From an archaeon GW2011_AR10 (GTDB taxonomy: Archaea > Iainarchaeota > Iainarchaeia > Iainarchaeales > GW2011-AR10), in the NCBI GenBank assembly GCA_000830275.1, contig CP010424.1, positions 570,001 through 602,000 on the forward strand: a DNA stretch of 32,000 nt. Direction: 5' to 3'. Each line of letters starts with the position of its first letter. Positions within the stretch are counted from its first letter, which is position 1. The translations under genes were made by a program, and so were the position numbers. The notes beneath the pieces are model-generated. The model was not told where the DNA came from. It searched no databases and saw nothing but the letters and a program-made list of their open reading frames with translations. Shown piece by piece: positions 9,035-29,255 of the stretch.

Positions 9035-10436
9035 GAAAAGACTTGAGAAGTTTCTTGTTTTCCCGGAGGATTCAATTAAGGAGACCATGAGAAAAGTTGA
9101 CTTGAATGGTTTTGGGATTGCCTTGATAACCAACCACGAAAAAAAACTTCTTGGAATTGTTACTGATGGGGACATCAGGAGAGCAATACTTAAGGGCACT
9201 GACATTGGTGAAAAGGTTGAAGGCATAATGAACAGGAACCCTGTTTATGCTTTTGAAGGCGCATCAAAGAGAGAGTTACTTTCACTTGTCAGGCGCCACA
9301 ATGTTGTGGAAAAAATTCCTATTTTGGGAAAAAACCTTACAGTAAAAGACATTGCAATCTTTTCCAATATTGAGGAGGGAAACCCTCTTTACATTAGCAT
9401 GGAAAAGAAGACTGCGCCATTAGTAAGAAAAGTCCTGGTAATAGGGGGGGCAGGCTATCTTGGCTCGGTTCTTGTCAGAAAGCTTTTGGAAAAAGGTTTT
9501 TTTGTAAGGGTACTTGACAACCTTACTTTTGGGAACGATGGCATAAAGGAGCTCTTTTCCAATAACCGCTTTGAATTCTTTGAGGGTGACATCAGGAAAA
9601 TTGATGATGTGGTGAGAGCAATTATTGGCATGGATGCAGTGGTTCATCTAGCTGCAATTGTGGGCGATTCTGCTTCCTCCATTGAACCAATTTCAACTGT
9701 TGAAACCAATTACCTTGCAACAAAGCTTATAGCTGAAACATGCAAGCACCATCAGGTTAACAGGCTGGTTTTTGCCTCAAGCTGTTCGGTTTACGGAGCA
9801 AACAGTTATGTGGCTGATGAGAGCACTGAACTGAACCCTGTCTCGCTTTACGCGAGAACAAAAATCAAGTCAGAGGAAGGCTTGCTTGAAATGAGTGACG
9901 AGAATTTTGCTCCGTGCATTTTGAGGATGGCAACTCTGTTCGGTGTTTCACCGAGAATGCGGTTTGACTTAGTTGTTAACCTGCTAACTGCAAAGGCACT
10001 AAACGAAAAAGAGATAACAATTTTTGGCGGAAACCAGTTCAGGCCGTTAGTGCATGTTGAGGATGCAGCGCAGGCCTACATTGATTGTCTTCGCGCACCG
10101 ATTGAAAAAATCAGGGGCCAAGTTTTCAATGTTGGGGCTGACAGCGGCAACTACCGAATCATTGACCTCGGCAGAAAAATCAAGGAGCTTGTTCCAGAAG
10201 CAAAACTTGTCGTGGAAAAAAAAGAAGAGGGCGACATTAGAACCTACAAGGTCTCTTTTGAAAAAATTTCCAAAGAACTTGGCTTTGCAGCAAGAAAAAC
10301 TGTTGATAACGGAGTAAAGGAAATAAGGGCTGCATTCGAGGAAGAATTGTTTGATGATTACTCAAGCGAAAAATACAGTGTTTACAGTTACTTAAAGAAA
10401 AATGTGTTTGGCAAGAGGGGTGCTTCCAATGAGTGA
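9027..10436 (+). CDS. CBS-pair (Bateman) domain fused to an extended SDR NAD-dependent sugar epimerase/dehydratase
   Basis: The N-terminal ~125 aa carry two CBS motifs (GIVTDGDIRRAIL ... KIPILGKNLTVKDIAIFSNI). These are followed by VIGGAGYLGSVL, ASSCSVYG and YARTK. ATG at 9027 overlaps the upstream stop (ATGCCTGA). The longer track ORF from 8958 is rejected. Confidence 0.8.
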   Translation: MPEKRLEKFLVFPEDSIKETMRKVDLNGFGIALITNHEKKLLGIVTDGDIRRAILKGTDIGEKVEGIMNRNPVYAFEGASKRELLSLVRRHNVVEKIPILGKNLTVKDIAIFSNIEEGNPLYISMEKKTAPLVRKVLVIGGAGYLGSVLVRKLLEKGFFVRVLDNLTFGNDGIKELFSNNRFEFFEGDIRKIDDVVRAIIGMDAVVHLAAIVGDSASSIEPISTVETNYLATKLIAETCKHHQVNRLVFASSCSVYGANSYVADESTELNPVSLYARTKIKSEEGLLEMSDENFAPCILRMATLFGVSPRMRFDLVVNLLTAKALNEKEITIFGGNQFRPLVHVEDAAQAYIDCLRAPIEKIRGQVFNVGADSGNYRIIDLGRKIKELVPEAKLVVEKKEEGDIRTYKVSFEKISKELGFAARKTVDNGVKEIRAAFEEELFDDYSSEKYSVYSYLKKNVFGKRGASNE

Positions 10437-10848
10437 GGAGAGGTTTGAGAAATGGGTGATGCCAAAAATTGAGGAAAAAAAGCTTCACCCAAAATATTTT
10501 TTTCTTGTTCAATACAAGCATAACCTGAAACTCGGAGTAAAAACTGATATCGGGGCTTTCAATTACATTAACGCAAAAAACGGTGTGGAAATTGGTGATT
10601 TCGTGCAAATAGGCTCGCACTGCTCAATTTACAGTGATTCAACAATTGACAACAAAAAAGGAAAAGTTGTTCTGAAAAAAAATGCAAGAATTGGAAGCCA
10701 CAGCGTTGTGATGCCTGGCGTCACTGTGGGGGAGAACTCAATTATTGGGGCGTTAAGTTTTGTCAACAAAGATATTCCTGCAAATGTATTGGCTTTCGGC
10801 ATTCCGGCAAAAGTTGTTAGGAAGCTCAAGCAGGAAGAACTTGAATGA
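10429..10848 (+). CDS. Left-handed beta-helix (hexapeptide repeat) acyl/acetyltransferase
   Basis: Hexapeptide periodicity in IGDFVQIGSHCSIYSDSTID...ARIGSHSVVMPGVTVGENSIIGALSFV. ATG at 10429 overlaps the upstream stop (ATGAGTGA). Confidence 0.75.
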   Translation: MSEERFEKWVMPKIEEKKLHPKYFFLVQYKHNLKLGVKTDIGAFNYINAKNGVEIGDFVQIGSHCSIYSDSTIDNKKGKVVLKKNARIGSHSVVMPGVTVGENSIIGALSFVNKDIPANVLAFGIPAKVVRKLKQEELE

Positions 10849-10858
10849 GTCAATAAAA

Positions 10859-12007
10859 ATGAAAAAAGTCTGCGTTACAACTGGTTCAAGGTCGGATTAT
10901 GGCATTCTTTCCCAAGTTATGAAAGAAATCAGAAAGAGCAAAGAGCTTGAGCTTGAAATTGTTGCAGCAGGCTCTCATCTTGAGGAAACATTCGGCTACA
11001 CTTACAAAGAAATAGAGCGGGATGGCTTTATTATTGATAAAAAAGTTAGGATTCCGCTTGCGTTTTCTTCAAACAAGGAAATGGCTAGTGCAACAGGTGA
11101 AGCAGTAAGAGGCTTTTCAGAGGCTTTCAGTGAAATAAAGCCTGACTTGGTGTTGGTTCTTGGCGACAGGTTCGAGGTTTTTGCAGCAGTCATTGCTGCT
11201 TACTATCAATTGATTCCTGTTGCGCACATTCACGGCGGTGACAAGTCAACTGGTGGCAGCCTTGACGACAGTGTCAGGCACGCAATTACAAAGCTTTCTC
11301 AAATTCATTTTGTTGCCTCGCGTAAAAGCTTTGAAAGGGTTAAAAAGCTTGGAGAGGAAGAGCACAGAATTCACTTGGTTGGTTCGCCGGCAGTTGACAT
11401 GATTCTGTCAACTAAAAAAATTTCCAGAGAGGAATTAAACAAAAAGTTTGGACTAAAAAATGAGCCATACACTGTTGTAATACAGCACCCTATAACAAGC
11501 AATGTTGGGGAAGCAGGCGCACAGATGAGGGAAACAATGGAGGCAGTTAAAAGCATTGGATTGCAGGCAGTTGTTGTTTACCCCAACGCTGATGCCGGAG
11601 GAAAAAAAATCATTGAAGAAATTGAGAAATACTCTAAGCTGCCTTTTGTGAAAGTTTTCAAGTCCGTTCCATTCAAGGATTACGTTCAGCTGTTAATGCA
11701 TTCGTCCTGCCTTGTCGGCAATAGCAGCGGAGCGCTGATTGAAACGCCTTCACTGCACATTCCTGCTGTCAATATTGGGCCAAGGCAAAATGAAAGGGAA
11801 AAGTCAGAGAATGTAATTGATGCCCCACATGACAGAAGAGAAATTGAGGCAGCAATTAGGAAGGCTTTGTTTGACAAGGAGTTCAAGAAAAAAGTTGAGA
11901 ATTGCAAAAATCCTTATGGCATAGGAAAAAGCTCAAAAAAAATTGTTGAAATACTGGAAAAAACAGAAATCAATGAGGGATTAATAAGGAAAAAACTTGC
12001 TTACTAG
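10859..12007 (+). CDS. neuC: UDP-N-acetylglucosamine 2-epimerase (hydrolysing), NeuC/LegG-like
   Basis: VTTGSRSDYGIL, AAGSHLEETFGYTYKEIERDGF and HIHGGDKSTGGSLDDSVRHAITKLSQIHF are NeuC-type blocks. ATG at 10859 lies just after the acetyltransferase stop. Confidence 0.85.
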   Translation: MKKVCVTTGSRSDYGILSQVMKEIRKSKELELEIVAAGSHLEETFGYTYKEIERDGFIIDKKVRIPLAFSSNKEMASATGEAVRGFSEAFSEIKPDLVLVLGDRFEVFAAVIAAYYQLIPVAHIHGGDKSTGGSLDDSVRHAITKLSQIHFVASRKSFERVKKLGEEEHRIHLVGSPAVDMILSTKKISREELNKKFGLKNEPYTVVIQHPITSNVGEAGAQMRETMEAVKSIGLQAVVVYPNADAGGKKIIEEIEKYSKLPFVKVFKSVPFKDYVQLLMHSSCLVGNSSGALIETPSLHIPAVNIGPRQNEREKSENVIDAPHDRREIEAAIRKALFDKEFKKKVENCKNPYGIGKSSKKIVEILEKTEINEGLIRKKLAY

Positions 12008-12152: not shown

Positions 12153-13040
12153 TTGGATAATGTAATCGTAATGTACCACTATGTGCAGGACAACACTGGA
12201 TTCAAAGCGTTTTCAAAGCAAGAATTCAGGGAACAAGTGCAGTACCTTAAAGAAAGATACAAAATAATCTCTTTGCAGGAACTCGTGGAAAAAAAGCCTC
12301 AAGGCAAGACATGCGTTCTCACGTTTGACGACGGAATTAAAGACGGATTTACAACAGCACTTCCAATACTTGAAGAAGAGGGCCTTAATGGAACTTTCTT
12401 TGTTCCAACAAAAATTTTTATGGAGAAAAAGCTGCTTGGAGCGCAGAAAAGGCACCTGTTACTGGCAAAGCTTGGAACAAAAAAGTTTGTTGAAGAATTC
12501 AATAAAATTGCAGACAATGTTTTTCAAGTAAAAAAAGAAGGAAAGAAAAACGAGTACGACGACGAACTGACATCAAACCTTAAATTCATGCTAGATAACA
12601 TGGACCAGAGAAAAGCAAATGCCATTTTGGATAGGATTTTCAGCAAGCGCTTCAATGAAAAAGAAGAGTTCGAAAAAATTTACCTAAGCTCAAAGGAAGT
12701 AAAAAGATTAGTTGGAAAAGGAATGGAGGTAGGAAGCCACGGGCATGCGCACCTGTGGCTTGGCAAGCTCCCTTTCAAGGACATGGAAGCAGACTTGGTG
12801 AAATCAGTTGAGGTTTTCAATAATGTGTTCTCAATGCACCCAAGAGTAATGTCTTACCCTTTTGGAAGCTACTCTCTTTTTACAAGGAGGCTAGCTGAAA
12901 AACTTGGTTTCATAGCGGCCGTTACAACAGCGAAAAAGAAAAATATAAGCCTAGAAAGCCCCTTAGAGCTAGGCAGGTATGACTGCATTGACCTGTTTCC
13001 AAGGAAAACCAAGGAAAAGTCGAGAAAGATTCTAAGCTAG
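12153..13040 (+). CDS. Polysaccharide deacetylase (NodB homology domain)
   Basis: VLTFDDGIKDG and GSHGHAH NodB motifs. TTG start lies 4 nt behind AGGTGA. An alternative ATG is at 12171. Confidence 0.8.
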   Translation: MDNVIVMYHYVQDNTGFKAFSKQEFREQVQYLKERYKIISLQELVEKKPQGKTCVLTFDDGIKDGFTTALPILEEEGLNGTFFVPTKIFMEKKLLGAQKRHLLLAKLGTKKFVEEFNKIADNVFQVKKEGKKNEYDDELTSNLKFMLDNMDQRKANAILDRIFSKRFNEKEEFEKIYLSSKEVKRLVGKGMEVGSHGHAHLWLGKLPFKDMEADLVKSVEVFNNVFSMHPRVMSYPFGSYSLFTRRLAEKLGFIAAVTTAKKKNISLESPLELGRYDCIDLFPRKTKEKSRKILS

Positions 13041-13055
13041 CAATATTGCGAAACA

Positions 13056-14174
13056 CTAATCAAAATAACTCTCCAATTTGCTATCCCTAACCGTATCCAG
13101 CGTATTGCAGTGAATTCCGCCCATATAATATGAGTGCCTGAAGCTTATTGGAATGACTTTCAATTTGTATTTTTCCAAAGTTTGAATTAGTTTTGTTTGT
13201 CTTTTATCAACAATCACTGTTTCCGGGTCAATAGACAATATGTTCATGCCAATCCACTCGGAAGCCATGTCACCAAGATCGCTTTCAACTCCAAGCTTTA
13301 GTAGCTTTTGGTGTACTTTGCTTCTTACATTTCTCTGGAAGTCAACGGTTTCTTTTGGGTGAGGCATTATATCATTGAAATAAATCTTTTCCCATTTGTC
13401 CAAAATTTTTGGGCAAGTTTTTTGGTTTACTCGGAAGCCATTTAAAAGCACTAGGCCGGGCCTCAAACATAAAACAGTGGAATCAATATGACTTGAGCGA
13501 TATATCTTGTCAGTGGTATGAACCCTGTATTCTTCGCCCAAAATGCTTTGCAGCCATTTGGCTGCAAGATAATTGCCTGACTTCGAAACCAAATACAAGA
13601 TGTCTTTTCCCATCCTGGCAGTGTTGGCAGCCTCAAAAAGAATTTCGTTTTCAGCCAATTTAAACAATACTTTATCAAATTCCCTCTCAACATCATGAAA
13701 GGGCACCATGTAATCCCCAATTAGTTTTGCTTTTGGGGCAGATATCCAGCGGAAACCCTCCTCAAAATAATGGTACCAAACATCGTAGAGTGCCATTGCC
13801 TCGTAATACCTGTACCTATTATAGGTGGGAGATTCTATTACAGTATCACCAACCACCAAATGGTGGTCCCGCATATTGTAACAATCGGAGCCAACCGCAG
13901 CCCAGTGGGGGGTTGAAAAAAACTTGTTCACATCGCCAGTATTTGGTCTGAATACTTTAGCTCCGTGGCTCTTAAGCACACCACACAGCTCTTCCAGGTC
14001 CTCGCTTACTTCGTTTACAAGCCATTCAGGATATGCGTCTTGGGCTAATTTGAATGCCTTTTCTTTGGTTTTATCATCAACAGGCCGGAAAAGAGTAAGA
14101 CTGGCCATTGTCTTAGTTCTGCCAACAATTATTTCTCTTAGTCTGTCCCACTCATTATGGCTATTAATTTTCAT
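13056..14174 (-). CDS. Amidinotransferase family protein (glycine / inosamine-phosphate amidinotransferase-like)
   Basis: NEWDRLREIIVG (compare NEWDPLEEVIVG as I recall it from human AGAT), SSHIDST (catalytic His region) and C-terminal MGGIHCNTLD (catalytic Cys region). The length and overall block order match AGAT/StrB1. Confidence 0.8.
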   Translation of the reverse strand: MKINSHNEWDRLREIIVGRTKTMASLTLFRPVDDKTKEKAFKLAQDAYPEWLVNEVSEDLEELCGVLKSHGAKVFRPNTGDVNKFFSTPHWAAVGSDCYNMRDHHLVVGDTVIESPTYNRYRYYEAMALYDVWYHYFEEGFRWISAPKAKLIGDYMVPFHDVEREFDKVLFKLAENEILFEAANTARMGKDILYLVSKSGNYLAAKWLQSILGEEYRVHTTDKIYRSSHIDSTVLCLRPGLVLLNGFRVNQKTCPKILDKWEKIYFNDIMPHPKETVDFQRNVRSKVHQKLLKLGVESDLGDMASEWIGMNILSIDPETVIVDKRQTKLIQTLEKYKLKVIPISFRHSYYMGGIHCNTLDTVRDSKLESYFD

Positions 14175-14520
14175 TCTCCCACTCGGTTGTTGTTTTTATT
14201 TTCCACTACGTTTTAACATTCCCAAATGACAGGACATAAGCCCATAAGTTGCTTTAATATTACTTCTTCTTTCTAACAAACATGAGCAGATTAGCCATAT
14301 TTTCTTGACACTATTTGTATTATTAAAAATATACAAAAATATATAACCATTTCTATAATCTATTAGGCCGGATTCCAAACGCTTCAAGTAAATAAAAAGG
14401 CTTTTCAAAGATTTGGAATGCGTTGCAGAAAGAAGGGTTCATGGAAAGAACTGGGTTGGCTGTTTTCATGAGAAGGCTTAAATAACTTAATTTGCTAATT
14501 TTACATGTCCTGGTGAAAAA

Positions 14521-15576
14521 ATGAAAAAAATGATTTTGTTCGGCTGCGGCGGCTCGGCAGGAATCAATTTTGTTAAATCATTGCGGCTTTGCAGGGAAAA
14601 AGTGAAAATTATTGGGTTTGACATAAATAGGTACTACATTGAGCTTTCGCCAGTTGACCAGCGCTACTTAATTCCAGCCATAAAGCAGCGTTCATCAGAA
14701 ACAATTGACAAGGTAAATGAACTGATAAAAAAAGGGGGGATTGATTTTGTTCACGCGCAGCCCGACCCAGAAGTAGGATATGTTTCAGAACACAGGGAAA
14801 AATTCAATGCAAAAACTTTTTTTCCTTCAAAAGAAGCCGTAAAAATCTGCCACGACAAAATGGAGTCCTACAAGACTTGGAAAAGTAAGGGAGTGCCTGT
14901 TGCAAAAACAATTCAAATTCAAAACGAGGGTTCGCTTGAAAAAGTTTTCAATGAGCTTAAGGGAACCGTGTGGATTCGCGCATCAAAGGGAGCCGGAGGA
15001 AAAGCAAGTTTGCCTGTTGACAGTGTTGATGAAGCCAGAATGTGGATAAGGTTCTGGACAAAATATGGTTTGATGTGGAATGATTTTATTGCAAGCGAGT
15101 TTTTGCCTGGAGAAGAAATTGCATGGAACAGTGTTTGGGCTGATGGAAAGCTGTTGTGCTCTCAGGGGAGAATCAGAATTGAGTGGGTTCAAGCTGGGTT
15201 GAGTCCGAGCGGCGTTACTGGCACAACAGCAATACAGAAAACAGTTCATGACGACAGCATCAATGAAATTGCCACAAAGGCAATTGAGGCAGTGGATAAA
15301 AAGCCTAACGGCATATTTTCAGTTGACATAAAACAGGACCCTGAAGGAAACCCGAAAGTAACTGAAATTAACCCCGGAAGATTTTCTACAACATCGCTTT
15401 TCTTTTCAACTTATGGAGTGAACATGCCTGAAATTTATTTGAAAGCAGCTTATGGAGAGAAAATTAAGGGGGTTTCTCCCTATAATTCAGTTGAAAAGGA
15501 CGTTTACTGGATTAGGATTCCAGATGGCGGCCCAGTTATGGTAAAAGGGGATGACTGGAAAAGCAAGCCGCTTTAA
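14521..15576 (+). CDS. ATP-grasp family ligase
   Basis: WIRASKGAGGKAS (glycine-rich ATP loop), EFLPGEE and KVTEINPGRFS (Mg/ATP-binding E-x-N). It is about 350 aa with a pre-ATP-grasp Rossmann-like N-terminus. Confidence 0.7.
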   Translation: MKKMILFGCGGSAGINFVKSLRLCREKVKIIGFDINRYYIELSPVDQRYLIPAIKQRSSETIDKVNELIKKGGIDFVHAQPDPEVGYVSEHREKFNAKTFFPSKEAVKICHDKMESYKTWKSKGVPVAKTIQIQNEGSLEKVFNELKGTVWIRASKGAGGKASLPVDSVDEARMWIRFWTKYGLMWNDFIASEFLPGEEIAWNSVWADGKLLCSQGRIRIEWVQAGLSPSGVTGTTAIQKTVHDDSINEIATKAIEAVDKKPNGIFSVDIKQDPEGNPKVTEINPGRFSTTSLFFSTYGVNMPEIYLKAAYGEKIKGVSPYNSVEKDVYWIRIPDGGPVMVKGDDWKSKPL

Positions 15577-15589
15577 CTTTAATTCTCTT

Positions 15590-16312
15590 ATGCTTGATAG
15601 TATGCAGGCAAAAGCAGTGATTTTTGATTACCATGGCACGCTTGTTGATCCATGGAAGCGATACCTAGAATCTTTTTCGCAGGCAATGAAAAAATGCTGC
15701 AATTCGGCTGTTACTGATAGGGAATTCATAAAAGAACAGCGGAGAGCAGGCACTCCAACACATAAAATATTGGAGAGCATTTTAAAAAAATCGGGTTTTC
15801 CTCAGTCCTCAGAGCTCATAGAAGAAATTAACAATTATAGAAGGACCCTTGTTTCCAGTCCTGATTTTTTTAGGGAAAACCCTGACACATTAATTGAAAG
15901 CGCAAAAGAAACTCTGCAAAAGATGAAGAAACAGGGAGCAAAGCTTTTTCTGGTTTCATTAATTCCACTTTTAGACCATTCAGAAGAGAGAAAAATAAAA
16001 AAACTTATACATAATCAGTTGGTGGCTTATGAACTGGAAAAAGAATTCAGCGAGGTTTTCATTGAAATAACTCCTTATGGAAAAAAATTCGGCAACGTCA
16101 AGCTAAACGCTTTCAAGAAAATTAATGAAAAAAACGGTTTTTCTTCTAATGAATGCGTTGTTGTGGGAGACTCTGAAATCGAGCTTAATGCCGGAAAAAC
16201 ACTCGGAATGAAAACAGTAGGCGTTCTAACTGGAATGAGCAGCAGGGAGAGGCTAGAAAAATTAAAGGTTGACAGAATAATAGGGTCGGTTGCAGAACTG
16301 GAACTTTTTTAG
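15590..16312 (+). CDS. HAD superfamily hydrolase (phosphoglycolate phosphatase/HAD-IA-like) with a variant motif I
   Basis: Motif I is VIFDYHGTLVD. Motif IV is VVGDSEIELNAG. A cap-domain-length insert lies between them. ATG at 15590 or 15602. The track start at 15551 overlaps the ATP-grasp gene. Confidence 0.75.
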   Translation: MLDSMQAKAVIFDYHGTLVDPWKRYLESFSQAMKKCCNSAVTDREFIKEQRRAGTPTHKILESILKKSGFPQSSELIEEINNYRRTLVSSPDFFRENPDTLIESAKETLQKMKKQGAKLFLVSLIPLLDHSEERKIKKLIHNQLVAYELEKEFSEVFIEITPYGKKFGNVKLNAFKKINEKNGFSSNECVVVGDSEIELNAGKTLGMKTVGVLTGMSSRERLEKLKVDRIIGSVAELELF

Positions 16313-17931
16313 CCGAACCACTTTGCCCTGTACTGAATAGGAATGTCAATTAATGTGTGCTCTCCCGACCTAAGAGCTTCCCTAAAAATTCTTTTTAGTT
16401 CATCGTTTTTTCCGGGCCTAAATGTTTTGAAACCATAGGACTCACCGAGCTTCAGAAAATCAGGGTTTTCTGCTTCCACTTCATAAGTTGTGCCGGAAGA
16501 AATCTGCTGGTTGTGTCTGATCAAGCCATAGCCTCCATCATTAAACACTACAGCCATAAACGGCAAATCAAGCCTCTTGGAAGTGTTAAGCGGTCCTGGC
16601 AACATATTCAAGCCGCCGTCACCCAAAACAGCAATTACGTTTCCTTTATCCCCAGTGTGTTTTTGGTAAAGTTTTGCAGCATTGGCTGCAGGCAAAGCAA
16701 AAGCCATTGTGGAAAATCCGTTGGAGAACAGCACACGGTTTCTTGAAACAGGGTTAAACATCAGGCCAACGTACTGCTTGTGCAATCCAACATCGCATGT
16801 TAAAATGTCATCCGGGCCAACGGCTTCACCCAATGCTTTAAGAACCTGCTGTGGCCAGAAAGGAAAAGCGCTTCCGTCAGAAAAGTCAAGGATTTTATGC
16901 AGTTTCTCTCTTTCCTCTTTTGGGTCAATTAACTTCTTCCCCGCCTTGAAATTCTTTCCTGCGCTGCTAGTGAGGAACTGCAAATACTTCTTTACGTTAC
17001 CTGTCAACTCAACGTGCGGTCTGTAAAATTCCTTTGAATTGTGGGGCGTGGCATCAATGTGCAGAACTTTTGGCTCAGGCATTGTCTTCCAAGTTGATGG
17101 CTTGACCCCCTCAGCATAGTCGTAACCCAAAGCAATCAAGAGATCAGATCTTTTGAATATTTCCTCATAAATGCTAAGGTGCCTGCTGACTGTGCCTATG
17201 AAAAGAGGGTGATCAGAGGAAATAGAATTTTTTCCGTGAAAAGAAGTAATGACAGGAATGTTGAATTTTTCTGCAAACTTTTTCAGTTCCTCGTGGGCTC
17301 CAAGCCTGTTGACAATCCCGCCTGCAAGTATTAGCGGGCTTTTTGAATTCCTTATCAGCTCGGCTGCAAAATGCAGAATCGAATCATCATAGCCCAGTTC
17401 TTTTGTTGGAAGCCTTTCAGAACGCTGTTCTGGAAAATCCCCTTTCAACGCGTCCCTGACAACAGTAATGTGAACAGGCCCTGGCCTTTCAGACTTAGCT
17501 ATGGAAAAAGCAAGGGAAATGACATTAGGAATACTGTCATGCGGCTTCAAAGTTGTTGAGCGCTTTGTTACAGGCGCCATTACTTTCTCAATGTCAATGA
17601 ATTGATGCGACCCCTCCACACAGTCCTCCAATGGCAGCTGGTCGCTTAAAGCAACAACAGGCGAGTAATCCTGCTTTGCGTTTGCAAGACCGCTGACAAG
17701 GTTTGTTGCTCCCGGTCCAAGAGTTGAAAAGCAAACTCCCGGCTCTTTTGAGAGCCTCCCCCAAGCGTCAGCCATTATTGCTGCTTCATGCTCATGCCTG
17801 ACTGTAATGAACTTGATGCTTGACTCCTTCAGGTCTGCAGGCAGGCTTGTAAGGTCATCTCCAAAAAGGCCGAAAATGTATTTAACGCCCTGCTCTTCCA
17901 AGGATTTTACCAGAAGCCGGGAACCCCTCAT
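16309..17931 (-). CDS. Thiamine-diphosphate-dependent enzyme, acetolactate synthase large subunit-like (three-domain)
   Basis: N-terminal Pyr domain (VRHEHEAAIMADAWGR, GPGATN). C-terminal ThDP motif VLGDGGLNM...VVFNDGGYG. The stop overlaps the HAD stop (TTAG). Confidence 0.85.
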   Translation of the reverse strand: MRGSRLLVKSLEEQGVKYIFGLFGDDLTSLPADLKESSIKFITVRHEHEAAIMADAWGRLSKEPGVCFSTLGPGATNLVSGLANAKQDYSPVVALSDQLPLEDCVEGSHQFIDIEKVMAPVTKRSTTLKPHDSIPNVISLAFSIAKSERPGPVHITVVRDALKGDFPEQRSERLPTKELGYDDSILHFAAELIRNSKSPLILAGGIVNRLGAHEELKKFAEKFNIPVITSFHGKNSISSDHPLFIGTVSRHLSIYEEIFKRSDLLIALGYDYAEGVKPSTWKTMPEPKVLHIDATPHNSKEFYRPHVELTGNVKKYLQFLTSSAGKNFKAGKKLIDPKEEREKLHKILDFSDGSAFPFWPQQVLKALGEAVGPDDILTCDVGLHKQYVGLMFNPVSRNRVLFSNGFSTMAFALPAANAAKLYQKHTGDKGNVIAVLGDGGLNMLPGPLNTSKRLDLPFMAVVFNDGGYGLIRHNQQISSGTTYEVEAENPDFLKLGESYGFKTFRPGKNDELKRIFREALRSGEHTLIDIPIQYRAKWFG

Positions 17932-18002
17932 ATTAAATCAGCCAATACTCTTAATACGTAAAACCAAATAAAAGCTTGTTTATATTAATTTTTAGTTGGT
18001 TT

Positions 18003-19364
18003 ATGGAAAAAAAAAGCTTCATTTTCAGGGTTCTTTCAAGGATTTTGCCTGAAAACAAGAGGGAACCTGAATTTGTTTCAAGCATTTCAATGTGGCTTCT
18101 GGCCGGCCTGCTACTGCACCTTATTTTGTTGCCTTTTGCTTTTCACTCAGATTTTTTATACATACACGGCAGTGCTTTCCAGTTATCGCATAATGGCGTA
18201 ATAAACATTTACAGTTATCTAGAAGAAAACAACTTGTGTGAAGGACTTGAAAATGCGTGCTTTGGTTATCCTCCCATAACATATTTTTTCTTTGGTGCGA
18301 CACAATTTATTGCAAAACCATTGCTGATAAATTTTGAAGAATGGGTTGACAGCATTGTTGAACTCCACAACAAAGAAGGTGTGCAGGAACTATTTTTTGG
18401 GTTTAACTCGAGCAACTGGAATGCGCTTCTTTTGAAACTTCCTTACCTTTTCTTTGACTTTGGTATTGCAGTAATTCTTCTGCATTTAATTGAAGACAAA
18501 AAGAAAGCAATTTTTGCAATGGTTTTCTGGCTCTTTAATCCAGTGGTTATTTATTCGCCTTTTCTTTTCTCGCAGTTTGACATAATCCCTGTCTTTTTTA
18601 TTGCGCTTGCATTGCTTTTCGCAAAAAAAGGAAAAGATATTGAGGCAATGGTTTCGCTAGGAATTGGTTTCGCATTCAAGCTTTTTCCAGTTCTCCTAAT
18701 ACCAATCGCTGCAATTATTTTGGGAAAAAAATTTTTTAGAACCATAAAACTAGGTTTAGTCGGAATTGCGCCTTTCATCATTGCTTCAATTCCTTTTTTC
18801 TTTACCCCAATTTACTGGAAGAGCCTGTTCGGCGCAAGCACAACCCCTTATGTTGTGCTTCCGCTGGGGATTTTTTTGTCAAGGCTTTTTGAAATGAATT
18901 TTGGGCTTGGAGTGCTTGAAAATACTCCGATATTCCATTTAGGGTATTTTCTGATAATTGCGCTTGTATGGGTTAAGAGAAAGTCGCCTAGGGAAGAACT
19001 GTACAAATATTTTTTGCTTGTTTTCTTTTGGCTTTTCATTTTTATTTTTATGAGACCGCATTACTTCATCTGGATTATTCCAACGCTTGCCATGTTCATT
19101 GCAAATGAAAAAAAATATTTACTGCCAAGCATTCTTCTGATAATTTTTTATGTGATTGCATTTATTCTGCCGTTTGATTACATGACCTGGGAATTGTTCT
19201 ACATAACTGACAAAGCATTTTTTTCATCGCTTCCAATGCCGGGAGCACTAATTGACTTGTTTTTTCCCTTTCCAATTTTTTACAGGCTCTCAAGAGTTTT
19301 TTTTGTTCTAACTAGTTTCTGGTTTGTTTTAGAATTATTAAAGAAAAAACAAAAAGGAAATTGA
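18003..19364 (+). CDS. Polytopic membrane protein, GT-C fold glycosyltransferase-like (DUF2029/GT87-like)
   Basis: More than 10 hydrophobic segments. The N-terminal loop HSDFLYIHGSAF...NIYSY...FGYPPITYFFFG resembles the DUF2029 signature (D..Y...YPP). FKLFPVLLIP block present. ATG at 18003 is preferred over TTG at 17976. Confidence 0.5.
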   Translation: MEKKSFIFRVLSRILPENKREPEFVSSISMWLLAGLLLHLILLPFAFHSDFLYIHGSAFQLSHNGVINIYSYLEENNLCEGLENACFGYPPITYFFFGATQFIAKPLLINFEEWVDSIVELHNKEGVQELFFGFNSSNWNALLLKLPYLFFDFGIAVILLHLIEDKKKAIFAMVFWLFNPVVIYSPFLFSQFDIIPVFFIALALLFAKKGKDIEAMVSLGIGFAFKLFPVLLIPIAAIILGKKFFRTIKLGLVGIAPFIIASIPFFFTPIYWKSLFGASTTPYVVLPLGIFLSRLFEMNFGLGVLENTPIFHLGYFLIIALVWVKRKSPREELYKYFLLVFFWLFIFIFMRPHYFIWIIPTLAMFIANEKKYLLPSILLIIFYVIAFILPFDYMTWELFYITDKAFFSSLPMPGALIDLFFPFPIFYRLSRVFFVLTSFWFVLELLKKKQKGN

Positions 19365-19368
19365 TTCC

Positions 19369-20145
19369 ATGAGAATTGTGAGAATATTCATTGTCAGCAT
19401 GGAGGAACCGTTTTTTCTCCCGGGTTTTTTTGAGAAAATCATTGAGAAAAACAGGGAAAAAATTGTTGGAATGACTGTCTTGCCACCAAAAGAAAGCCTC
19501 GTGAAAATTATGCTAAATGAAATCAGGGTCAATGGTTTAGGGAATTTTTCAATAAAGGGGCTGAAATTTGCTTACTTGAAATCAGTGGATTTTTTTGGAA
19601 ATTTTCTCCAGCAAAAAAAGGTTTATTCACTCAGAGGCCTTGCAAAAAAATATTCAATTCCGGTAATTGAAACGCGCAACGTTAACGATGAAAAGTATAT
19701 CGAAAAACTTCAAGGCATTAATCTAGACCTAATTATTGCGCAGTCCCCCCAAGTTTTCAGCAAGAAACTGCTAGAGGTAGCAAAAATCGGGTGCATTAAC
19801 AAGCATGCCTCGCTTCTCCCAAAATACAGGGGGTTGCACCCAATAGTGTGGGCTATTGCAAACGGTGAAAAAGAAATCGGAGTAACAGTCCACTTTATGG
19901 AGGAAAAAGTTGATTCCGGTCCTGTAATCGCACAAAAAAGTTTTAGGCTAAAAAAAGGCGACACAATTGACAAACTTTATGAAAAGGTATTTAAGGAGGC
20001 GGCAGTTTTGATAATTAAAGCAATAAAGGATATTGAGGAAAAGAAATTAAGAACGTTCAGGCAAAAAGGAAAGGGCAGCTATTATTCTGTGCCAGATAAA
20101 GAGACTATTGTTAAATTCAGGAAAAACTTGGCTGGGCTGAAATGA
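19369..20145 (+). CDS. Formyltransferase (Fmt/ArnA N-terminal/PurN family), probable sugar N-formyltransferase
   Basis: INKHASLLPKYRG (N-x-H-x-SLLPxxRG) and EEKVDSGPVIAQ (catalytic Asp region). No Fmt tRNA-binding C-terminal domain is evident. It overlaps the next gene by ATGA. Confidence 0.8.
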   Translation: MRIVRIFIVSMEEPFFLPGFFEKIIEKNREKIVGMTVLPPKESLVKIMLNEIRVNGLGNFSIKGLKFAYLKSVDFFGNFLQQKKVYSLRGLAKKYSIPVIETRNVNDEKYIEKLQGINLDLIIAQSPQVFSKKLLEVAKIGCINKHASLLPKYRGLHPIVWAIANGEKEIGVTVHFMEEKVDSGPVIAQKSFRLKKGDTIDKLYEKVFKEAAVLIIKAIKDIEEKKLRTFRQKGKGSYYSVPDKETIVKFRKNLAGLK

Positions 20146-21056
20146 AAGACAACAAAATAGCAGCAACAATACAGGTTGACATGGACCCTTTATGGAGCCA
20201 GCTTGAATACTATGGCCATAGCGGAGAAATTCATCCGGATGTTTTCTATGAAACCGGGCTTCCCCGCTTTTTGGATTTGTTCAGGAAGAACAACGTTAAG
20301 GCCACTTTTTTTGTGGTTGGAAAAGACGCTGAAAACAAGCACAAAAAGGAATTGTTAAAACAAATCCGCGAAGAAGGCCATGAAATTGCAAACCATTCAT
20401 TTTCCCACCCACTCGGCTTAAGCAGTTTGCCGAAAAAAGAAATTGAAACAGAGGTCAGAAAAGCAGAAAATGCCATCAAAAAAATCACTGGAATGAAGCC
20501 GGCTGGATTTAAAGCACCTGGATGGGATCTGAGCTCAAAGTTGTTGGATATTTTAGAAGAAAATAATTATGTTTATGATGCCTCGCTTCTCCCGACATTT
20601 ACAATCCTTCCGATTTATTTGTTTGAGAGAATATTTGGGAGAAAAAAACTCAATCAATTCCATGGGCCAAACTTAAGTTCTGGATTCGCACCACTGCACC
20701 CTTACACTCCTTCAATAGATTCTATTGAAAAAATTGGTGAAAGGGAAATTGTTGAAATCCCAAACACTGTTGTTCCGATTTTCAGGTTTCCTTACCACAG
20801 CAGCCCAGTTTTTTTATTTGGCTTGAATTTTTTTAGGGTCAGCTATTTCCTTACAAGGAAGAGGCACCTTCCACTAAACTATGAATTCCACTTAATTGAT
20901 TTGGCTGACAACATTGCGGACAGGAGAATTCCATCTTACAGGTTGCCTCCTTTGGAGAAAAGAATGCGCATCTGCAGGTTTATTGTAAAAGCACTGGTGA
21001 ACGATTACAGAATTGTTACTTCCCGTGATCTTGCAGAAGAATTCAAACCCAGATAG
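20142..21056 (+). CDS. Polysaccharide deacetylase family protein, ArnD-like (possible deformylase)
   Basis: IQVDMDPLW (a DxD-type motif like ArnD IDVDT, not TFDD), ATFFVVGKDA and HEIANHSFSHP. Confidence 0.7.
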   Translation: MKDNKIAATIQVDMDPLWSQLEYYGHSGEIHPDVFYETGLPRFLDLFRKNNVKATFFVVGKDAENKHKKELLKQIREEGHEIANHSFSHPLGLSSLPKKEIETEVRKAENAIKKITGMKPAGFKAPGWDLSSKLLDILEENNYVYDASLLPTFTILPIYLFERIFGRKKLNQFHGPNLSSGFAPLHPYTPSIDSIEKIGEREIVEIPNTVVPIFRFPYHSSPVFLFGLNFFRVSYFLTRKRHLPLNYEFHLIDLADNIADRRIPSYRLPPLEKRMRICRFIVKALVNDYRIVTSRDLAEEFKPR

Positions 21057-21097
21057 AACTTAAATTTATTATTGCGAGTAAATTTTTAGGTGATTGG

Positions 21098-21829
21098 TTG
21101 ATTAAATTCGTAATCCCTGCTTTCAATGAAGCGGAAAACATCTCAAAAGTTCTGCAAAAAATTGAAAAATTAATGAAGCGCATGAATAAAAACTATGCAT
21201 TAATTGTAATCGATGATGGCAGCACGGACAACACAAAGCAACTGTTGAAAGGCTTTAAAAAAAATATGTATCTAATTTCTCACGAAAAAAACAAAGGCGT
21301 TGCTGAAGTTTTCAAAACCGCTTTTAATTCAATCGAGCCAAAACTTAAGGAAAACGATTTGGTTGTTACACTGGAGGCTGACCTGACCTCTGACCTAAAG
21401 GATTTGCCTGAAATGATTGCAAAAGCCGAACAGGAGGCTGATGTGGTGCTTGCATCCTGCTATGCTCCTGGCGGGAGCATAAAAAACATTTCTTTTGAGA
21501 GAAGGTTTTTGAGCACTGGAGCAAACACACTAATGAAAATGGTTTTCCCGATGCAGGGCATTCACACTTACTCTTCTTTTTTCAGGGTTTACAGGGGAAG
21601 CGCAATAAAAAAAGCAATTAAAAATTACGGAAAACATTTGATTGAAGAAGATGGATTCACCTGCGTGGTGGAGCTCCTCATTAAAATGGACATGCTTGGT
21701 TTGCGCTTTGCCGAAGTGCCAACTACTCTTGACTTAAGCGTAAGAAAAGGAAAAAGCAAAATGAATGTTCCAAAAACAATTGCAGCATATTTAAAGCTCA
21801 TTCACCGTTATGCATGGAAAAGAGGATAG
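21098..21829 (+). CDS. GT2 polyprenyl-phosphate glycosyltransferase (Dpm1/ArnC/AglK-like)
   Basis: FVIPAFNEAENI, IVIDDGSTDNT, HEKNKGVAE and LEADLTSD. It is a short soluble GT-A of about 240 aa. TTG start lies 4 nt behind AGGTGA. Confidence 0.8.
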   Translation: MIKFVIPAFNEAENISKVLQKIEKLMKRMNKNYALIVIDDGSTDNTKQLLKGFKKNMYLISHEKNKGVAEVFKTAFNSIEPKLKENDLVVTLEADLTSDLKDLPEMIAKAEQEADVVLASCYAPGGSIKNISFERRFLSTGANTLMKMVFPMQGIHTYSSFFRVYRGSAIKKAIKNYGKHLIEEDGFTCVVELLIKMDMLGLRFAEVPTTLDLSVRKGKSKMNVPKTIAAYLKLIHRYAWKRG

Positions 21830-21870
21830 CGGGATACGTTTAATACGGTTTTGCAGCTAAAATTCAATTA

Positions 21871-23382
21871 ATGCCTTTCCTAGCGCAAGAGAACAGGGCC
21901 AAGCTGCTGCTGCTTTTGCTGGCAATTGCGTTTCTTGTACGGGTTTACGCTATTGACAGGCCGATCCTTGAAGTAATGTCCACAAGGCAGGCTTTAACTG
22001 CAATGACTGCAAGGAACTTAAACGAAAGCAACTTTGACCTGCTGCACCCAGAAATAGACCTATTTGAAGGCAGGGAAAAATCCTATTATGCGCTGGAGCT
22101 ACACGTGATGCCAGCGATTACTGCGCTGCTCTACAGCCTGTTTGGAGTACAGGAATGGATTGGCAGGCTGGTATCAATACTGTTTTTTCTCGGAGCACTT
22201 ATTTTCATGTTTTTGCTCCTTGAAAAGTTCTTTAACCTGAAAGTTGCATTTATTGGCAGCCTTTTTTTCTCGCTTTCCCCGCTTACGGTAATTTATGCGA
22301 GAACATTCCAGCCGGAATCATCAATGCTTTTCTTCATGGTCGGAGCTTTGTACTTTTTCAGCGAATGGGTTGACAGGCAGGGAAATGCGGAACTCGCATT
22401 GAGCGCGGTTTTCACTTCGCTTGCACTGCTCATTAAGCCGACTGCAATTGCAGTGCTTCCTGCAATAGCGTTTCTCGCATTCAACAAGTTTGGCTGGAAA
22501 GCACTTTCAAACTGGAAGGCATGGGCCGCAATAATTCTTGTGCCATCAATTGCACTGGTTGCCTGGAGTTACTGGGCGTTTCTACTGCAACAGGAAAGCC
22601 CGGGAAGTTTTGCAAGCGTTTTGGGTGGGTGGCTGCAGCGAGACCTGGAGGAATTAACTGCTGTTACCCCGTTTTCGCCGGAACTTTATTTTGTTTTGTT
22701 TGAGAGGCTTGCCGGAAGAATCCTCACGCCAATTGGTTTTGCGCTCGCAGCAATAGGCTTGATGCTGAAACCAGAAAAAAAAGCGCAGCTGGTTTTCCAT
22801 TTTTTCCTTTTAGGAGGCTTAATTTCATTCCTTGTTTTTTACTGGCAGAACTTTGTGCACGACTACTATCAATTGCCTTTGGCTGCTGCACTAGCTGCAT
22901 TTGTTGGCATAGGGGGAAACGCAATACTTGAATCAAGGCAAATAAGGGAACGAGTGATTGACAAAAGAATAATTGCTGCCGGACTGGTTTTGCTTGTTGG
23001 GACAACGTTTTACTATTACACCCTGCAGGCATTCCACCCTTACACTAAAACCCCTGGAGAGCACTTGATGTTCGTTGAAGCAGGAGAAAAAGTTGATTCA
23101 TTAATTGAAAAAGATGCAAAGGTTTTGGTTGCATCAGAGAACGCGAAAGGCCTCCTGTATTACACCGACAGGAAGGGAAACGTATTTGCAGTTGGGCAAA
23201 CCAATGCCGAATCAATTGAAAACCTGCAGGAAAAAATCGGCATTGGCTTTACACATTTCCTTTACGCGAAAACAAAAAACTTTGCTTTGCCTGAAGAAAT
23301 CCATAGTTACCTGAAAGAAAACTTTGAAACGGTTTTGGCAGAGGAAGAAAAATACTATTTGTACGATTTAAGCCCCGATTAA
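21871..23382 (+). CDS. Polytopic membrane glycosyltransferase, GT-C fold (ArnT/PMT, GT83/GT39-like)
   Basis: 503 aa with many hydrophobic segments, followed by a soluble C-terminal ~100 aa. The layout and the position next to the Dpm1/ArnC-like GT2 are typical of ArnT/PMT_2 proteins. I could not see a clean DE motif in the first loop. Confidence 0.5.
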   Translation: MPFLAQENRAKLLLLLLAIAFLVRVYAIDRPILEVMSTRQALTAMTARNLNESNFDLLHPEIDLFEGREKSYYALELHVMPAITALLYSLFGVQEWIGRLVSILFFLGALIFMFLLLEKFFNLKVAFIGSLFFSLSPLTVIYARTFQPESSMLFFMVGALYFFSEWVDRQGNAELALSAVFTSLALLIKPTAIAVLPAIAFLAFNKFGWKALSNWKAWAAIILVPSIALVAWSYWAFLLQQESPGSFASVLGGWLQRDLEELTAVTPFSPELYFVLFERLAGRILTPIGFALAAIGLMLKPEKKAQLVFHFFLLGGLISFLVFYWQNFVHDYYQLPLAAALAAFVGIGGNAILESRQIRERVIDKRIIAAGLVLLVGTTFYYYTLQAFHPYTKTPGEHLMFVEAGEKVDSLIEKDAKVLVASENAKGLLYYTDRKGNVFAVGQTNAESIENLQEKIGIGFTHFLYAKTKNFALPEEIHSYLKENFETVLAEEEKYYLYDLSPD

Positions 23383-25516: not shown

Positions 25517-25552
25517 GAAAACCAAAAAAAGTAGGGATTAAAGATTTTTATT

Positions 25553-29185: not shown

Positions 29186-29255
29186 AGAGTATTTTCTGCT
29201 GGAACACTTAAAAAGGTTTTTCCCGCACAATAAATAATAAACTGTTTTTTGAAAG

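Follow-up and report, generated by a model that had tools for sequence, protein, structure and literature searches.

A probable seam between two sugar-tailoring gene modules in a glycan island of the DPANN archaeon GW2011_AR10

Do four adjacent genes in a glycan island of the archaeon GW2011_AR10 build a single sugar decoration, or do they belong to two decorations whose genes have come to lie side by side? The host is a DPANN archaeon (Diapherotrites), and the window analyzed here is the whole stretch of 32,000 nucleotides at positions 570,001 to 602,000 of the forward strand of contig CP010424.1 (assembly GCA_000830275.1); all coordinates below are counted from its first letter. A first-pass annotation of this window had described four open reading frames (ORFs) at 13056-17931, encoding an AGAT/StrB1-type amidinotransferase (g1), an ATP-grasp ligase (g2), a HAD-family hydrolase (g3), and a thiamine diphosphate (ThDP) enzyme (g4), with a divergent AT-rich region of 346 bp and a convergent stop overlap of 4 nt, between a nonulosonic acid (NulO) cassette upstream and a GT-C/Arn-like block downstream. 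We confirmed these coordinates and strands, the glycan-island setting, and the archaeal host, as well as the four family calls, by profile and Foldseek comparison for g1 and by Pfam for the others. The same annotation had read the four genes as one module, and this reading failed. The interval is very probably a seam between two independently inherited sugar-tailoring modules, here called Module A and Module B, which abut by chance in this archaeon. Their features are as follows.

12153-14174: Module A, comprising the deacetylase PDa1 and g1
12153-13040, plus strand: PDa1, CE4 (NodB-type) polysaccharide de-N-acetylase (Pfam Polysacc_deac_1, 7e-23); Module A
13056-14174, minus strand: g1, StrB1-type L-arginine amidinotransferase, 372 aa; Module A
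14175-14520, no strand: g1/g2 divergent intergenic region, 346 bp; seam between Module A and Module B
14521-17931: Module B, comprising g2, g3, and g4
14521-15576, plus strand: g2, ATP-grasp carboxylate-amine ligase of an uncharacterized PylC-like/CPS-like family, 351 aa; Module B
15551-16312, plus strand: g3, HAD-superfamily hydrolase and partner of g2, 253 aa; Module B
16309-17931, minus strand: g4, three-domain ThDP enzyme, FAD-independent and like catabolic acetolactate synthase (ALS), 540 aa; Module B

Numerous conserved homologs of each of the four show that these are genuine genes rather than chance ORFs. On identical public contigs, gene callers start g3 at ATG 15602, giving a protein of 236 aa, and this is the probable true start. 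The g1/g2 spacer has a GC content of 32.4% versus 41.5% for the window and carries TATA-like hexamers near 14340-14359 on both strands, and the stop codons of g3 and g4 overlap in the sequence TTAG at 16309-16312.

Co-occurrence of the four genes

Homologs of the window proteins were searched in 69 loci from named genomes anchored on g1, and reciprocally in 88 loci (746 kb) anchored on g2 or g4, with locus L167 additionally covered by Pfam annotation. Neither g2 nor g3 had a homolog in any of the 69 g1 loci, and g1, PDa1-type CE4, NeuB, and CMP-transferase were found in 0 of the 88 g2/g4 loci, as also in L167. The only g4-like gene among the g1 loci (1/69) was a ThDP gene of 25% identity beside a distant cyanobacterial g1 homolog of 33% identity. 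The g1 loci contained NeuB (34), DegT (29), CMP-transferase (28), NeuC (26), and PDa1 (22, a count obtained with strict thresholds). Additionally, all ORFs within 5 kb of g1 were clustered without use of annotation in the 53 loci whose g1 is at least 45% identical (hereafter, ortholog loci), and no ligase, ATP-grasp, HAD, or ThDP family recurred among them. The two closest relatives of g1 (77% and 66% identity) are accompanied by a CE4 and a methyltransferase and lack ATP-grasp, HAD, and ThDP genes.

All four genes were found together only in copies of one population that are 99.5-99.9% identical; the window matches contigs from a Rifle groundwater metagenome at this level. Six contigs carrying the exact g1 protein are uninformative on conservation because they belong to the same population. 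A truncation of g4 in the population variant L004 was considered as a biological breakpoint and rejected, as it is an assembly gap (a run of N) whose flanks match g4 at 99%. Across the g1 and g2/g4 loci, there was no comparative evidence for co-inheritance of the two sides of the 346-bp region.

The single pathway proposed in the first-pass annotation would have a guanidino acid from g1, or a branched or decarboxylated guanidino 2-oxo-acid product of the ThDP enzyme, ligated by the ATP-grasp enzyme to an amino, uronic, or nonulosonic sugar. The contiguity of the genes speaks for this, as does the retention of all four in every copy of this population's locus, and the combination of amidinotransferase and ligase is established in natural-product pathways. 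The sharing of one divergent promoter region by g1 and g2 weighs in the same direction and against our partition, being compatible with co-regulation or lineage-specific joint use. Nevertheless, the four genes do not co-occur outside one population (0/69 and 0/88), the closest g1 relatives manage without g2-g4, the two halves keep different sets of strongly conserved partners, and a ligase to be fed by the amidinotransferase does not recur near g1 orthologs, leaving that link unsupported. With synteny absent from related genomes, the four-gene unit is largely refuted, and joint action of the four genes is very unlikely.

The partition into two modules is well supported. Gene identities, conservation of catalytic residues, and the two co-occurrence patterns were observed, whereas we infer the chemistry of both modules, with its substrates, step order, and products. 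As the first-pass annotation had expected, none of the four genes has a close characterized ortholog in a housekeeping pathway, and its idea of a new glycan decoration chemistry survives, although as two separate chemistries with different partners. As a point of method, contiguity says little about functional unity within a glycan island; in this case, the true partner of g1 lies just outside the interval first reported.

Module A and the nonulosonic acid cassette

Pfam searches returned the families of g2, g3, and g4, and for g1 only a weak C-terminal match to the arginine deiminase (ADI) family (PF02274, 25 bits). A profile of the g1 family compared with PDB entries matched StrB1 (1bwd) with an E-value of 9e-91, followed by SxtG (4e-69), HsvA (1e-60), and AGAT (about 1e-59). 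The AlphaFold model of g1 (pLDDT 83) likewise had StrB1 (1bwd) as its best Foldseek match (E 4e-33, TM 0.75-0.80), and deiminases (ADI) and dimethylarginine dimethylaminohydrolases scored no better than 1e-11, about 20 orders of magnitude weaker. Within the pentein (beta/alpha propeller) fold, g1 is thus nearer to amidinotransferases than to deiminases or dimethylarginine dimethylaminohydrolases. On the basis of these profile and model comparisons, g1 is assigned as a true amidinotransferase of the StrB1/AGAT/SxtG family, closest to StrB1.

The identity of g1 to StrB1 is 40% over residues 6-270 and 49% over residues 305-370. Its Cys356 (GGIHC), aligned to C332 of StrB1, is present in 120 of 120 homologs, and His229 (SHIDST), aligned to H227, in 115 of 120, so that g1 looks catalytically competent as judged from its residues. 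A point against this is the acid of the triad, Glu181 in g1, which is Glu in 113 of 120 homologs and Asp in 2, while StrB1 (D179) and AGAT (D254) have Asp; the change is conservative. StrB1, the L-arginine:inosamine-phosphate amidinotransferase of Streptomyces griseus, is the best profile and structure match and shares the catalytic Cys and His. Its acceptor is an amino-cyclitol phosphate, whose amine is borne by a six-membered polyhydroxylated ring, and no closer analogue of a sugar amine is known. In sequence, g1 departs from StrB1 by the Glu of the triad and by about 25-30 inserted residues around 271-304, and it occurs in the context of NulO biosynthesis with a CE4 and a methyltransferase rather than in aminoglycoside biosynthesis.

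Orthologs of g1 were found in Parcubacteria and other members of the Candidate Phyla Radiation (CPR), Omnitrophota, Planctomycetota, Acidobacteriota, Chloroflexota (SAR202), and Leptospiraceae, as well as in Prochlorococcus, many SAR11 single-cell genomes, and others. Identity across these groups is 50-66%, which is unusually high and therefore implies strong constraint. A g1-like clade at about 33% identity occurs in cyanobacteria (Scytonema, Lyngbya, Rhizonema, and Iphinoe), Lewinellaceae, and others (loci L059-L066 and L069), has no CE4, methyltransferase, or NulO neighbors, and probably consists of natural-product amidinotransferases. Because this clade lacks such neighbors, the NulO link is specific to the g1 clade of at least 45% identity.

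In the ortholog loci, the tightest partner of g1 was a CE4 family, present within 5 kb in 44 of the 53 loci at a median distance of 10 bp, and no more than 300 bp away in 36. S-adenosylmethionine (SAM)-dependent methyltransferase families lay within 5 kb in 39 loci and within 300 bp in 33, and 34 loci had both partners; Pfam confirmed the cluster representatives as Polysacc_deac_1 and methyltransferases. Core NulO genes were within 5 kb of g1 in 34/53 loci. PDa1 of the window matches the representative of the g1-adjacent CE4 cluster (E 7e-13) and has the metal-binding and catalytic motifs TFDD and HGHAH, corresponding to TFDD in 41/44 and HxxxH in 44/44 members of the cluster.

The closest g1 relatives show the same grouping. 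In the loci of the protein P0002 (77% identical to g1; L164 and L165), the CE4 directly follows the amidinotransferase gene, and on L165 a methyltransferase comes next, with overlapping gene ends. These contigs carry archaeal housekeeping genes (TBP on L164 and ribosomal protein L21e on L165), and L165 has no glycan-related gene beyond the amidinotransferase, CE4, and methyltransferase operon. In the locus of P0007 (66% identical; L166), the order CE4, amidinotransferase, methyltransferase is found inside a complete NulO cluster with DegT, CMP-transferase, NeuB, NeuC, a PglD-like acetyltransferase, and a PtmE-like NTP-transferase. The corresponding cassette of the window lies directly upstream of PDa1.

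6087-12007, plus strand: legionaminic-type NulO cassette of CMP-transferase, NeuB, DegT, CBS-SDR, hexapeptide acetyltransferase (10402-10848), and NeuC (Pfam)

The window NeuB scored 422 bits with TIGR03569 (cutoff 399.65) and 288 with the PseI model (cutoff 340), and NeuC scored 440 bits with TIGR03568 (cutoff 235.9). Because both pass the NeuB_NnaB and NeuC_NnaA cutoffs, the cassette is of the Neu/Leg type and not of the Pse type. Matches to the LegB (168 and 97 bits, below 475), LegC (190, below 420), and PseF (130, below 206) models were at the family level only. The acetyltransferase at 10402-10848 belongs to the NeuD/PglB family. As a separate observation, NeuC is split into ORFs of 202 and 185 aa in population contig L001 (12168-13330, corresponding to window positions of about 10850-12007) and is an intact protein of 388 aa elsewhere; the alignment of L001 with the window shows a length difference of 4 columns, which reflects either a strain-level frameshift or a sequencing error.

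We consider Module A to be an accessory of this adjacent legionaminic-type NulO cassette, and there is a somewhat less than even chance that its product is a guanidino sugar, formed by action on the NulO or on a precursor of it. In the proposed sequence, the CE4 would remove an N-acetyl group from the NulO or a nucleotide-sugar precursor and free an amine; g1 would then take the amidino group from L-arginine onto Cys356 and transfer it to this amine with release of ornithine, which would yield a guanidino-NulO (guanidino-legionaminic acid). In most other genomes, the adjacent SAM methyltransferase would methylate the product. The most likely site of amidination is N5, because its acetyl group, inherited from GlcNAc, would explain the need for a deacetylase. 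N7 is disfavored because its amine is free after the DegT step and an acetyltransferase of the NeuD/PglB family is kept for it.

Several observations weigh against this proposal. In the window, PDa1 and g1 are convergent and not co-directional, and no methyltransferase adjoins g1, the nearest candidates (24644-25525 and 28065-28811) having generic similarity with E-values of about 1e-8. Moreover, 9 of the 53 ortholog loci lack a CE4, and about 14 have no NulO gene in reach. The location of the L164 and L165 genes next to housekeeping genes implies that the acceptor need not be a NulO.

Some of the same observations would fit a different product, a free small guanidino compound such as guanidinoacetate or a methylated, creatine-like solute, with the CE4 acting elsewhere. 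An amidinotransferase with a methyltransferase follows the established logic of creatine synthesis (AGAT/GAMT), and some triads are located away from NulO genes (L164/L165; about 14/53 loci). This explanation is unlikely, since the CE4, which has no role in the synthesis of guanidino acids, is the most constant partner (44/53 loci), the triad is embedded in NulO operons (L166; 34/53 loci within 5 kb), and the nearest characterized relative, StrB1, amidinates the ring amine of an amino-cyclitol.

Acetamidino-NulOs, including Leg5Am7Ac, Leg5AmNMe7Ac, and Pse5Ac7Am, are known from Campylobacter and Legionella and are formed by PseA/PtmG/WbpG-type amidotransferases with HisH/HisF-like proteins and the PtmH methyltransferase. 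This route places a cationic, amidine-type N-substituent on legionaminic or pseudaminic acid, which can then be N-methylated, and the substituent expected from Module A with a methyltransferase would likewise be cationic and optionally methylated. Enzymes and chemistry differ: in the known route, the acetamido carbonyl reacts with ammonia, whereas the enzymes of Module A would first cleave off the acetyl group and then pass on the amidino group of arginine, resulting in a guanidine and not an acetamidine. HisH/HisF-like genes stand beside the amidinotransferase triad in 5 of 53 ortholog loci (together with WbpG/PseA-like genes) and beside the Module B genes in L163 (1113-2554), which suggests that acetamidino and guanidino substituents may be made side by side in some organisms.

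Taken together, we tentatively propose that the CE4, the StrB1-like amidinotransferase, and usually a methyltransferase constitute a widespread and undescribed pathway, in which the N-acetyl group of a legionaminic-type NulO would be converted to a guanidino or N-methylguanidino group to form a cationic, sialic-acid-like surface sugar. Predicted carriers of such a guanidino-NulO may include SAR11, Prochlorococcus, CPR bacteria, Acidobacteriota, and DPANN archaea. In the literature searched, we found nothing linking amidinotransferases or guanidino groups to nonulosonic or legionaminic acids, and no such gene triad. By our own calculation, an amidino group (CH3N2, 43.0296) in place of an acetyl group (C2H3O, 43.0184) makes a sugar only 0.011 Da heavier, so that mass-spectrometric surveys may have taken guanidino sugars for ordinary di-N-acetyl NulOs.

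Module B and the amino-sugar pathway

The g2 protein matched ATP-grasp_3 and PylC-like_N in Pfam and the NCBIfam model PRK12767 at 90 bits, below its cutoff. Its AF2 model (pLDDT 91) has the canonical three-domain fold of ATP-grasp ligases, and Foldseek gave a probability of 1.0 to many of them, including 2pn1, PurD, PurK, L-amino-acid ligases, PylC, ArgX, and Ddl, all at 19% identity or less. Structural comparison, which had placed g1 closest to StrB1, returned for g2 generic ATP-grasp ligases only and no substrate clue, a point that does not favor any proposed chemistry of this module, including ours. The g2 family has at least 225 homologs, mostly from archaea and CPR, with concentrations in Bathyarchaeia, Methanomethyliaceae, Parvarchaeota, and CPR.

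The g3 protein matched HAD_2 (2e-13) and Hydrolase in Pfam. A tblastn search with g3 yielded hardly any match in the g2 loci, which reflects insensitivity and not absence: when the next ORF was extracted from the 69 metagenomic g2 loci that extend for 500 nt or more beyond the gene, a small HAD ORF lay directly 3' of the g2 homolog in 51 of them. In most cases, it overlaps the stop codon of the ATP-grasp gene; motif I is of the FDLDGTL type in 47 of these ORFs and a variant in 4. Because this pair is kept in 51/69 loci, it is regarded as the ancient core of Module B. In the alignment, g3 has the nucleophile Asp27 in motif I (FDYHGTL), followed by the Ser/Thr position of motif II (LVS) and the acidic residues of motif IV (GDSEIE). 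The residue at Asp+2, the general acid/base position, is His and not the Asp of the DxD motif typical of phosphatases and mutases, so that phosphatase activity of g3 is not assured, which counts against the role proposed for it below. At this position, L156 has Glu, L097 has Phe, about 47 other family members have the canonical DxD, and Cj1435 of Campylobacter jejuni has Cys (FDFCETL). The change may mark an altered substrate or mechanism in the HAD sub-clade associated with ThDP enzymes. Additionally, a very widespread archaeal pair was observed in L076-L155 and L157, mostly on Bathyarchaeia-type contigs, in which a g2-type ATP-grasp gene is followed by an overlapping gene for a minimal HAD protein of about 164 aa with the motif IV GNxxND; in some loci, this is replaced by a DUF354-like protein of 329 aa or an SDR.

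The g4 protein matched TPP_enzyme_N/M/C in Pfam, and both the ThDP motif (GDGGLNM...NDGGYG) and the catalytic Glu (RHEHEAA) are visible in its translation. Its nearest PDB entries are catabolic ALS (5e-77) and carboxyethylarginine synthase (CEAS, 7e-60). The RFDDR motif is characteristic of FAD-dependent acetohydroxyacid synthase (AHAS); the aligned region of g4 reads GYDYAEG, as in catabolic ALS, and RFDDR is lacking. In a rough neighbor-joining tree, g4 and the ThDP enzymes adjacent to ATP-grasp genes grouped apart from annotated ALS of cyanobacteria, Firmicutes, and Nitrospirae, and the glycan-linked group is marked by the signature GYDYAEG(I/V)KP and an insertion of one residue.

NCBI assigns a protein identical to g4 to a Candidatus Diapherotrites archaeon. 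The best NCBIfam models of g4 are ALS large subunits, and JGI and NCBI name its homologs as ALS. This raises the question of whether g4 is an ordinary ALS of branched-chain amino-acid or acetoin metabolism that is merely located in the island. Its best score, 440.7 bits with PRK08322/NF006187, is below the cutoff of 509, and other ALS models are far below theirs. Genes for IlvN, IlvC, IlvD, and AlsD were found neither among the scanned window ORFs of at least 150 aa nor in the annotations of nine homolog loci. From the g4 side, a PylC-like ATP-grasp gene was directly downstream in all four close homologs examined (4/4), although in L161 and L162 this ligase is only 23% identical to g2 and no HAD gene is present. 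A weakness of the separate clade is that it depends on a rough tree and that identity to annotated ALS (36-38%) is close to that within the clade (37-42%). With its score, its indel signature, and its ATP-grasp neighbor, g4 is highly improbable as an ordinary ALS. Thus, g4 is like AlsS and CEAS in its three-domain ThDP fold, its best PDB matches, and its lack of the RFDDR motif of FAD binding, and it differs from them in scores below the ALS equivalog cutoffs, a distinct clade, and an obligatory ATP-grasp neighbor in glycan clusters.

In the sub-clade closest to the window, with 38-59% identity, the ThDP gene joins the ATP-grasp/HAD pair in shuffled gene orders.

L156, L158, L163, and L167: ThDP > ATP-grasp > HAD
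L159: ATP-grasp > ThDP > HAD
L160: HAD < ATP-grasp > ThDP

These six trio loci contained GFO oxidoreductases (6/6), small GT2 glycosyltransferases (5/6), DegT aminotransferases (4/6), and GT-C glycosyltransferases (4/6; PMT_2, PMT, or YfhO in L156, L159, L160, and L163). No N-acetyltransferase was annotated near the trio in any of the six loci, and no UDP-sugar dehydrogenase was annotated nearby in L156, L158, L160, or L167. As an additional feature, L158 (2108-5306) and L167 (3684-6901) carry, on the opposite strand beside the trio, genes for a GDSL/SGNH-like protein of about 390 aa, an ORF of 74-76 aa without a Pfam match, and a carbamoyltransferase (Carbam_trans_N/C); in L156 (4004-5176), only the GDSL-like protein is found in that position, and the set is absent from the window. 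It hints at O-carbamoyl or O-acyl tailoring of the same sugar. The window has candidate counterparts of the trio neighbors.

2261-3250, plus strand: GFO/IDH/MocA oxidoreductase with likeness to archaeal UDP-GlcNAc 3-dehydrogenase
17976-19364, plus strand: GT87-like GT-C glycosyltransferase (Pfam GT87), 44-bp divergent gap from g4
19369-23382, plus strand: Arn-like block of formyltransferase, CE4, GT2, and PMT_2 GT-C (Pfam); downstream context of Module B

The GFO protein at 2261-3250, which matches NF040723 at 326 bits (below the cutoff of 450), is a candidate supplier of a keto or amino sugar for Module B, and the GT87-like GT-C at 17976-19364 is the likely user of its sugar. Further upstream are GT1/GT2 genes, the GFO gene, WecB, and SDRs, followed by the NulO cassette. 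Among these, an ORF of 257 aa at 3250-4023 matches only the central domain of UDP-glucose/GDP-mannose dehydrogenases; it is called short on all population contigs, homologs of 40-46% identity recur in archaeal g2 loci, and it may be a truncated or split dehydrogenase. The row of formyltransferase, CE4, GT2, and PMT_2 genes mirrors the logic of ArnA-N, ArnD, ArnC, and ArnT in the bacterial Arn pathway, with the CE4 as deacetylase or deformylase; a lipid-linked, transiently formylated amino sugar would be unusual for an archaeon.

These neighborhoods suggest that Module B is an accessory of a lipid-linked 3-keto/3-amino-sugar pathway with a GFO-type 3-dehydrogenase and DegT. Two known routes are comparable: WbpB/WbpE/WbpD, which leads to UDP-2,3-diacetamido sugars, and Arn, the lipid-linked pathway of 4-amino-4-deoxy-L-arabinose (L-Ara4N). 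Module B shares with WbpB/WbpE and Arn the adjacent GFO-type 3-dehydrogenase and DegT, a GT2 for transfer to polyprenyl phosphate, a GT-C, and, in the window, a formyltransferase and a CE4. Unlike WbpB/WbpE/WbpD, the trio loci lack an N-acetyltransferase equivalent to WbpD and have the set of ATP-grasp, ThDP, and HAD genes in its place.

A possible function, which we put forward tentatively, is that Module B N-acylates a 3-amino sugar with an acid derived from the ThDP enzyme. A UDP-N-acetylhexosamine would undergo 3-oxidation and then transamination, and g4 would make a 2-hydroxy or oxo acid by a pyruvate-type carboligation. The carboxylate would be activated by g2 as an acyl phosphate and joined as an amide to the sugar amine, replacing the usual N-acetyltransferase, and g3 would remove phosphate from a phosphorylated building block or product. 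The product would then pass to polyprenyl phosphate through the GT2 and on to the GT-C transferase. The logic of ATP-grasp ligation with subsequent HAD dephosphorylation has a precedent in C. jejuni that was proven by experiment (PMC11800397), and archaeal N-glycans contain N-glyceroyl groups and C6-amidated diamino-uronic acids (PMC11407970).

The first-pass annotation had compared g4 with YerE, which adds a two-carbon branch, and with AruI, and both analogies are weaker than the assignment to the catabolic-ALS-like enzymes. AHAS-like enzymes can branch keto-sugars, as in YerE, and the most constant neighbor of the trio, the GFO 3-dehydrogenase, would make such a keto-sugar; g4 would then transfer a two-carbon unit from pyruvate to a keto-sugar nucleotide, and g2 and g3 would act at another step. 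YerE is described as a flavoenzyme, however, and g4 is closest to FAD-independent catabolic ALS and has no RFDDR-type motif. The branching function would also leave the tight coupling of ThDP and ATP-grasp genes unexplained, and DegT beside GFO in 4/6 trio loci points to amination of the keto group. We therefore consider a YerE-like role improbable.

A second alternative to N-acylation is suggested by the glucuronamide of the HS:2 capsule of C. jejuni, for which the ATP-dependent amidoligase Cj1438C and the HAD phosphatase Cj1435 have been proven experimentally to ligate and then dephosphorylate (PMC11800397). Like this duo, Module B pairs an ATP-dependent, amide-forming ligase with a HAD protein in polysaccharide tailoring. 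By analogy with it, or with the threonine amidation of Methanococcus glycans, Module B could amidate the C6 carboxylate of a uronic or diamino-uronic acid with a phosphorylated amine or amino acid, after which the HAD enzyme would remove the phosphate. The amine precursor would come from the ThDP enzyme together with an aminotransferase. A link of g2 to AglU, which attaches threonine in Methanococcus, found no support in the literature searched. Uronic acids in Thr-amidated and C6-amidated form occur in archaeal N-glycans, and genes for UDP-sugar dehydrogenase, WecB-type epimerase, GFO, and DegT are among the neighbors in the wider archaeal g2 family. In L163, a UDP-sugar dehydrogenase and an epimerase neighbor the trio, an arrangement that would fit amidation of a uronic acid and speaks against N-acylation, and the window has WecB and the UDPG_dh-like ORF upstream.

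Comparison with the sequences of Cj1438C and Cj1435 (PMC11800397) did not reveal a family relationship to g2 or g3. The candidate assignment of g2 to the TupA-like ATP-grasp type of Cj1438C was rejected (hhalign probability 0.15%; Cj1438C has PF14305 and g2 does not), as was that of g3 to the Cj1435 type (BLASTP E 0.17; Cj1435 has PF12710 and g3 has HAD_2/Hydrolase). Unlike the C. jejuni system, Module B has a ThDP partner, and with no homology at the family level, the two are mechanistic analogues only. The polarity may also be reversed, with a sugar amine and an acid reacting in place of a sugar acid and an amine. Besides this mismatch of g2 and g3, the lack of an annotated dehydrogenase that would form a uronic acid near the trio of L156, L158, L160, and L167 argues against uronic amidation. 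To our knowledge, there is no route to a phospho-amine that involves an ALS-like enzyme, which counts further against it. Overall, uronic amidation is rather unlikely, although it is a serious alternative to N-acylation.

Outside both modules, a DUF1616 membrane-protein ORF (28829-29449, minus strand) and a gene for a geranylgeranyl-reductase-like FAD protein (29256-30407, plus strand) lie on opposite strands and share about 190 nt. For the former, the called TTG start is probably too far upstream, and both genes are compatible with an archaeal host.

Implications for archaeal and bacterial surface glycans

The best explanation overall is probably that of two modules together with their proposed chemistries. 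Both are uncharacterized sets of glycan-tailoring enzymes that are not categorically new in kind. Module A predicts a new natural substituent of NulOs: the family of g1 is known, and its NulO context, with partners that imply a sugar amine, is undescribed. NulOs are the outermost sugars on many microbial surfaces, where their N-substituents set charge and recognition by phages, grazers, and the immune system. The gene triad predicted to make this substituent is carried by marine bacteria that rank among the most abundant and by episymbiotic CPR and DPANN lineages. Module B consists of three well-known superfamilies in a recurrent arrangement for which we found no characterized counterpart, and it defines an unnoticed subfamily of ALS-like ThDP enzymes that travels with an ATP-grasp ligase in amino-sugar clusters. 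These features point to an N-acyl, or amide, decoration in the glycans of archaea and CPR bacteria, and the archaeal N-glycan literature describes several unusual acyl groups that still await their enzymes.

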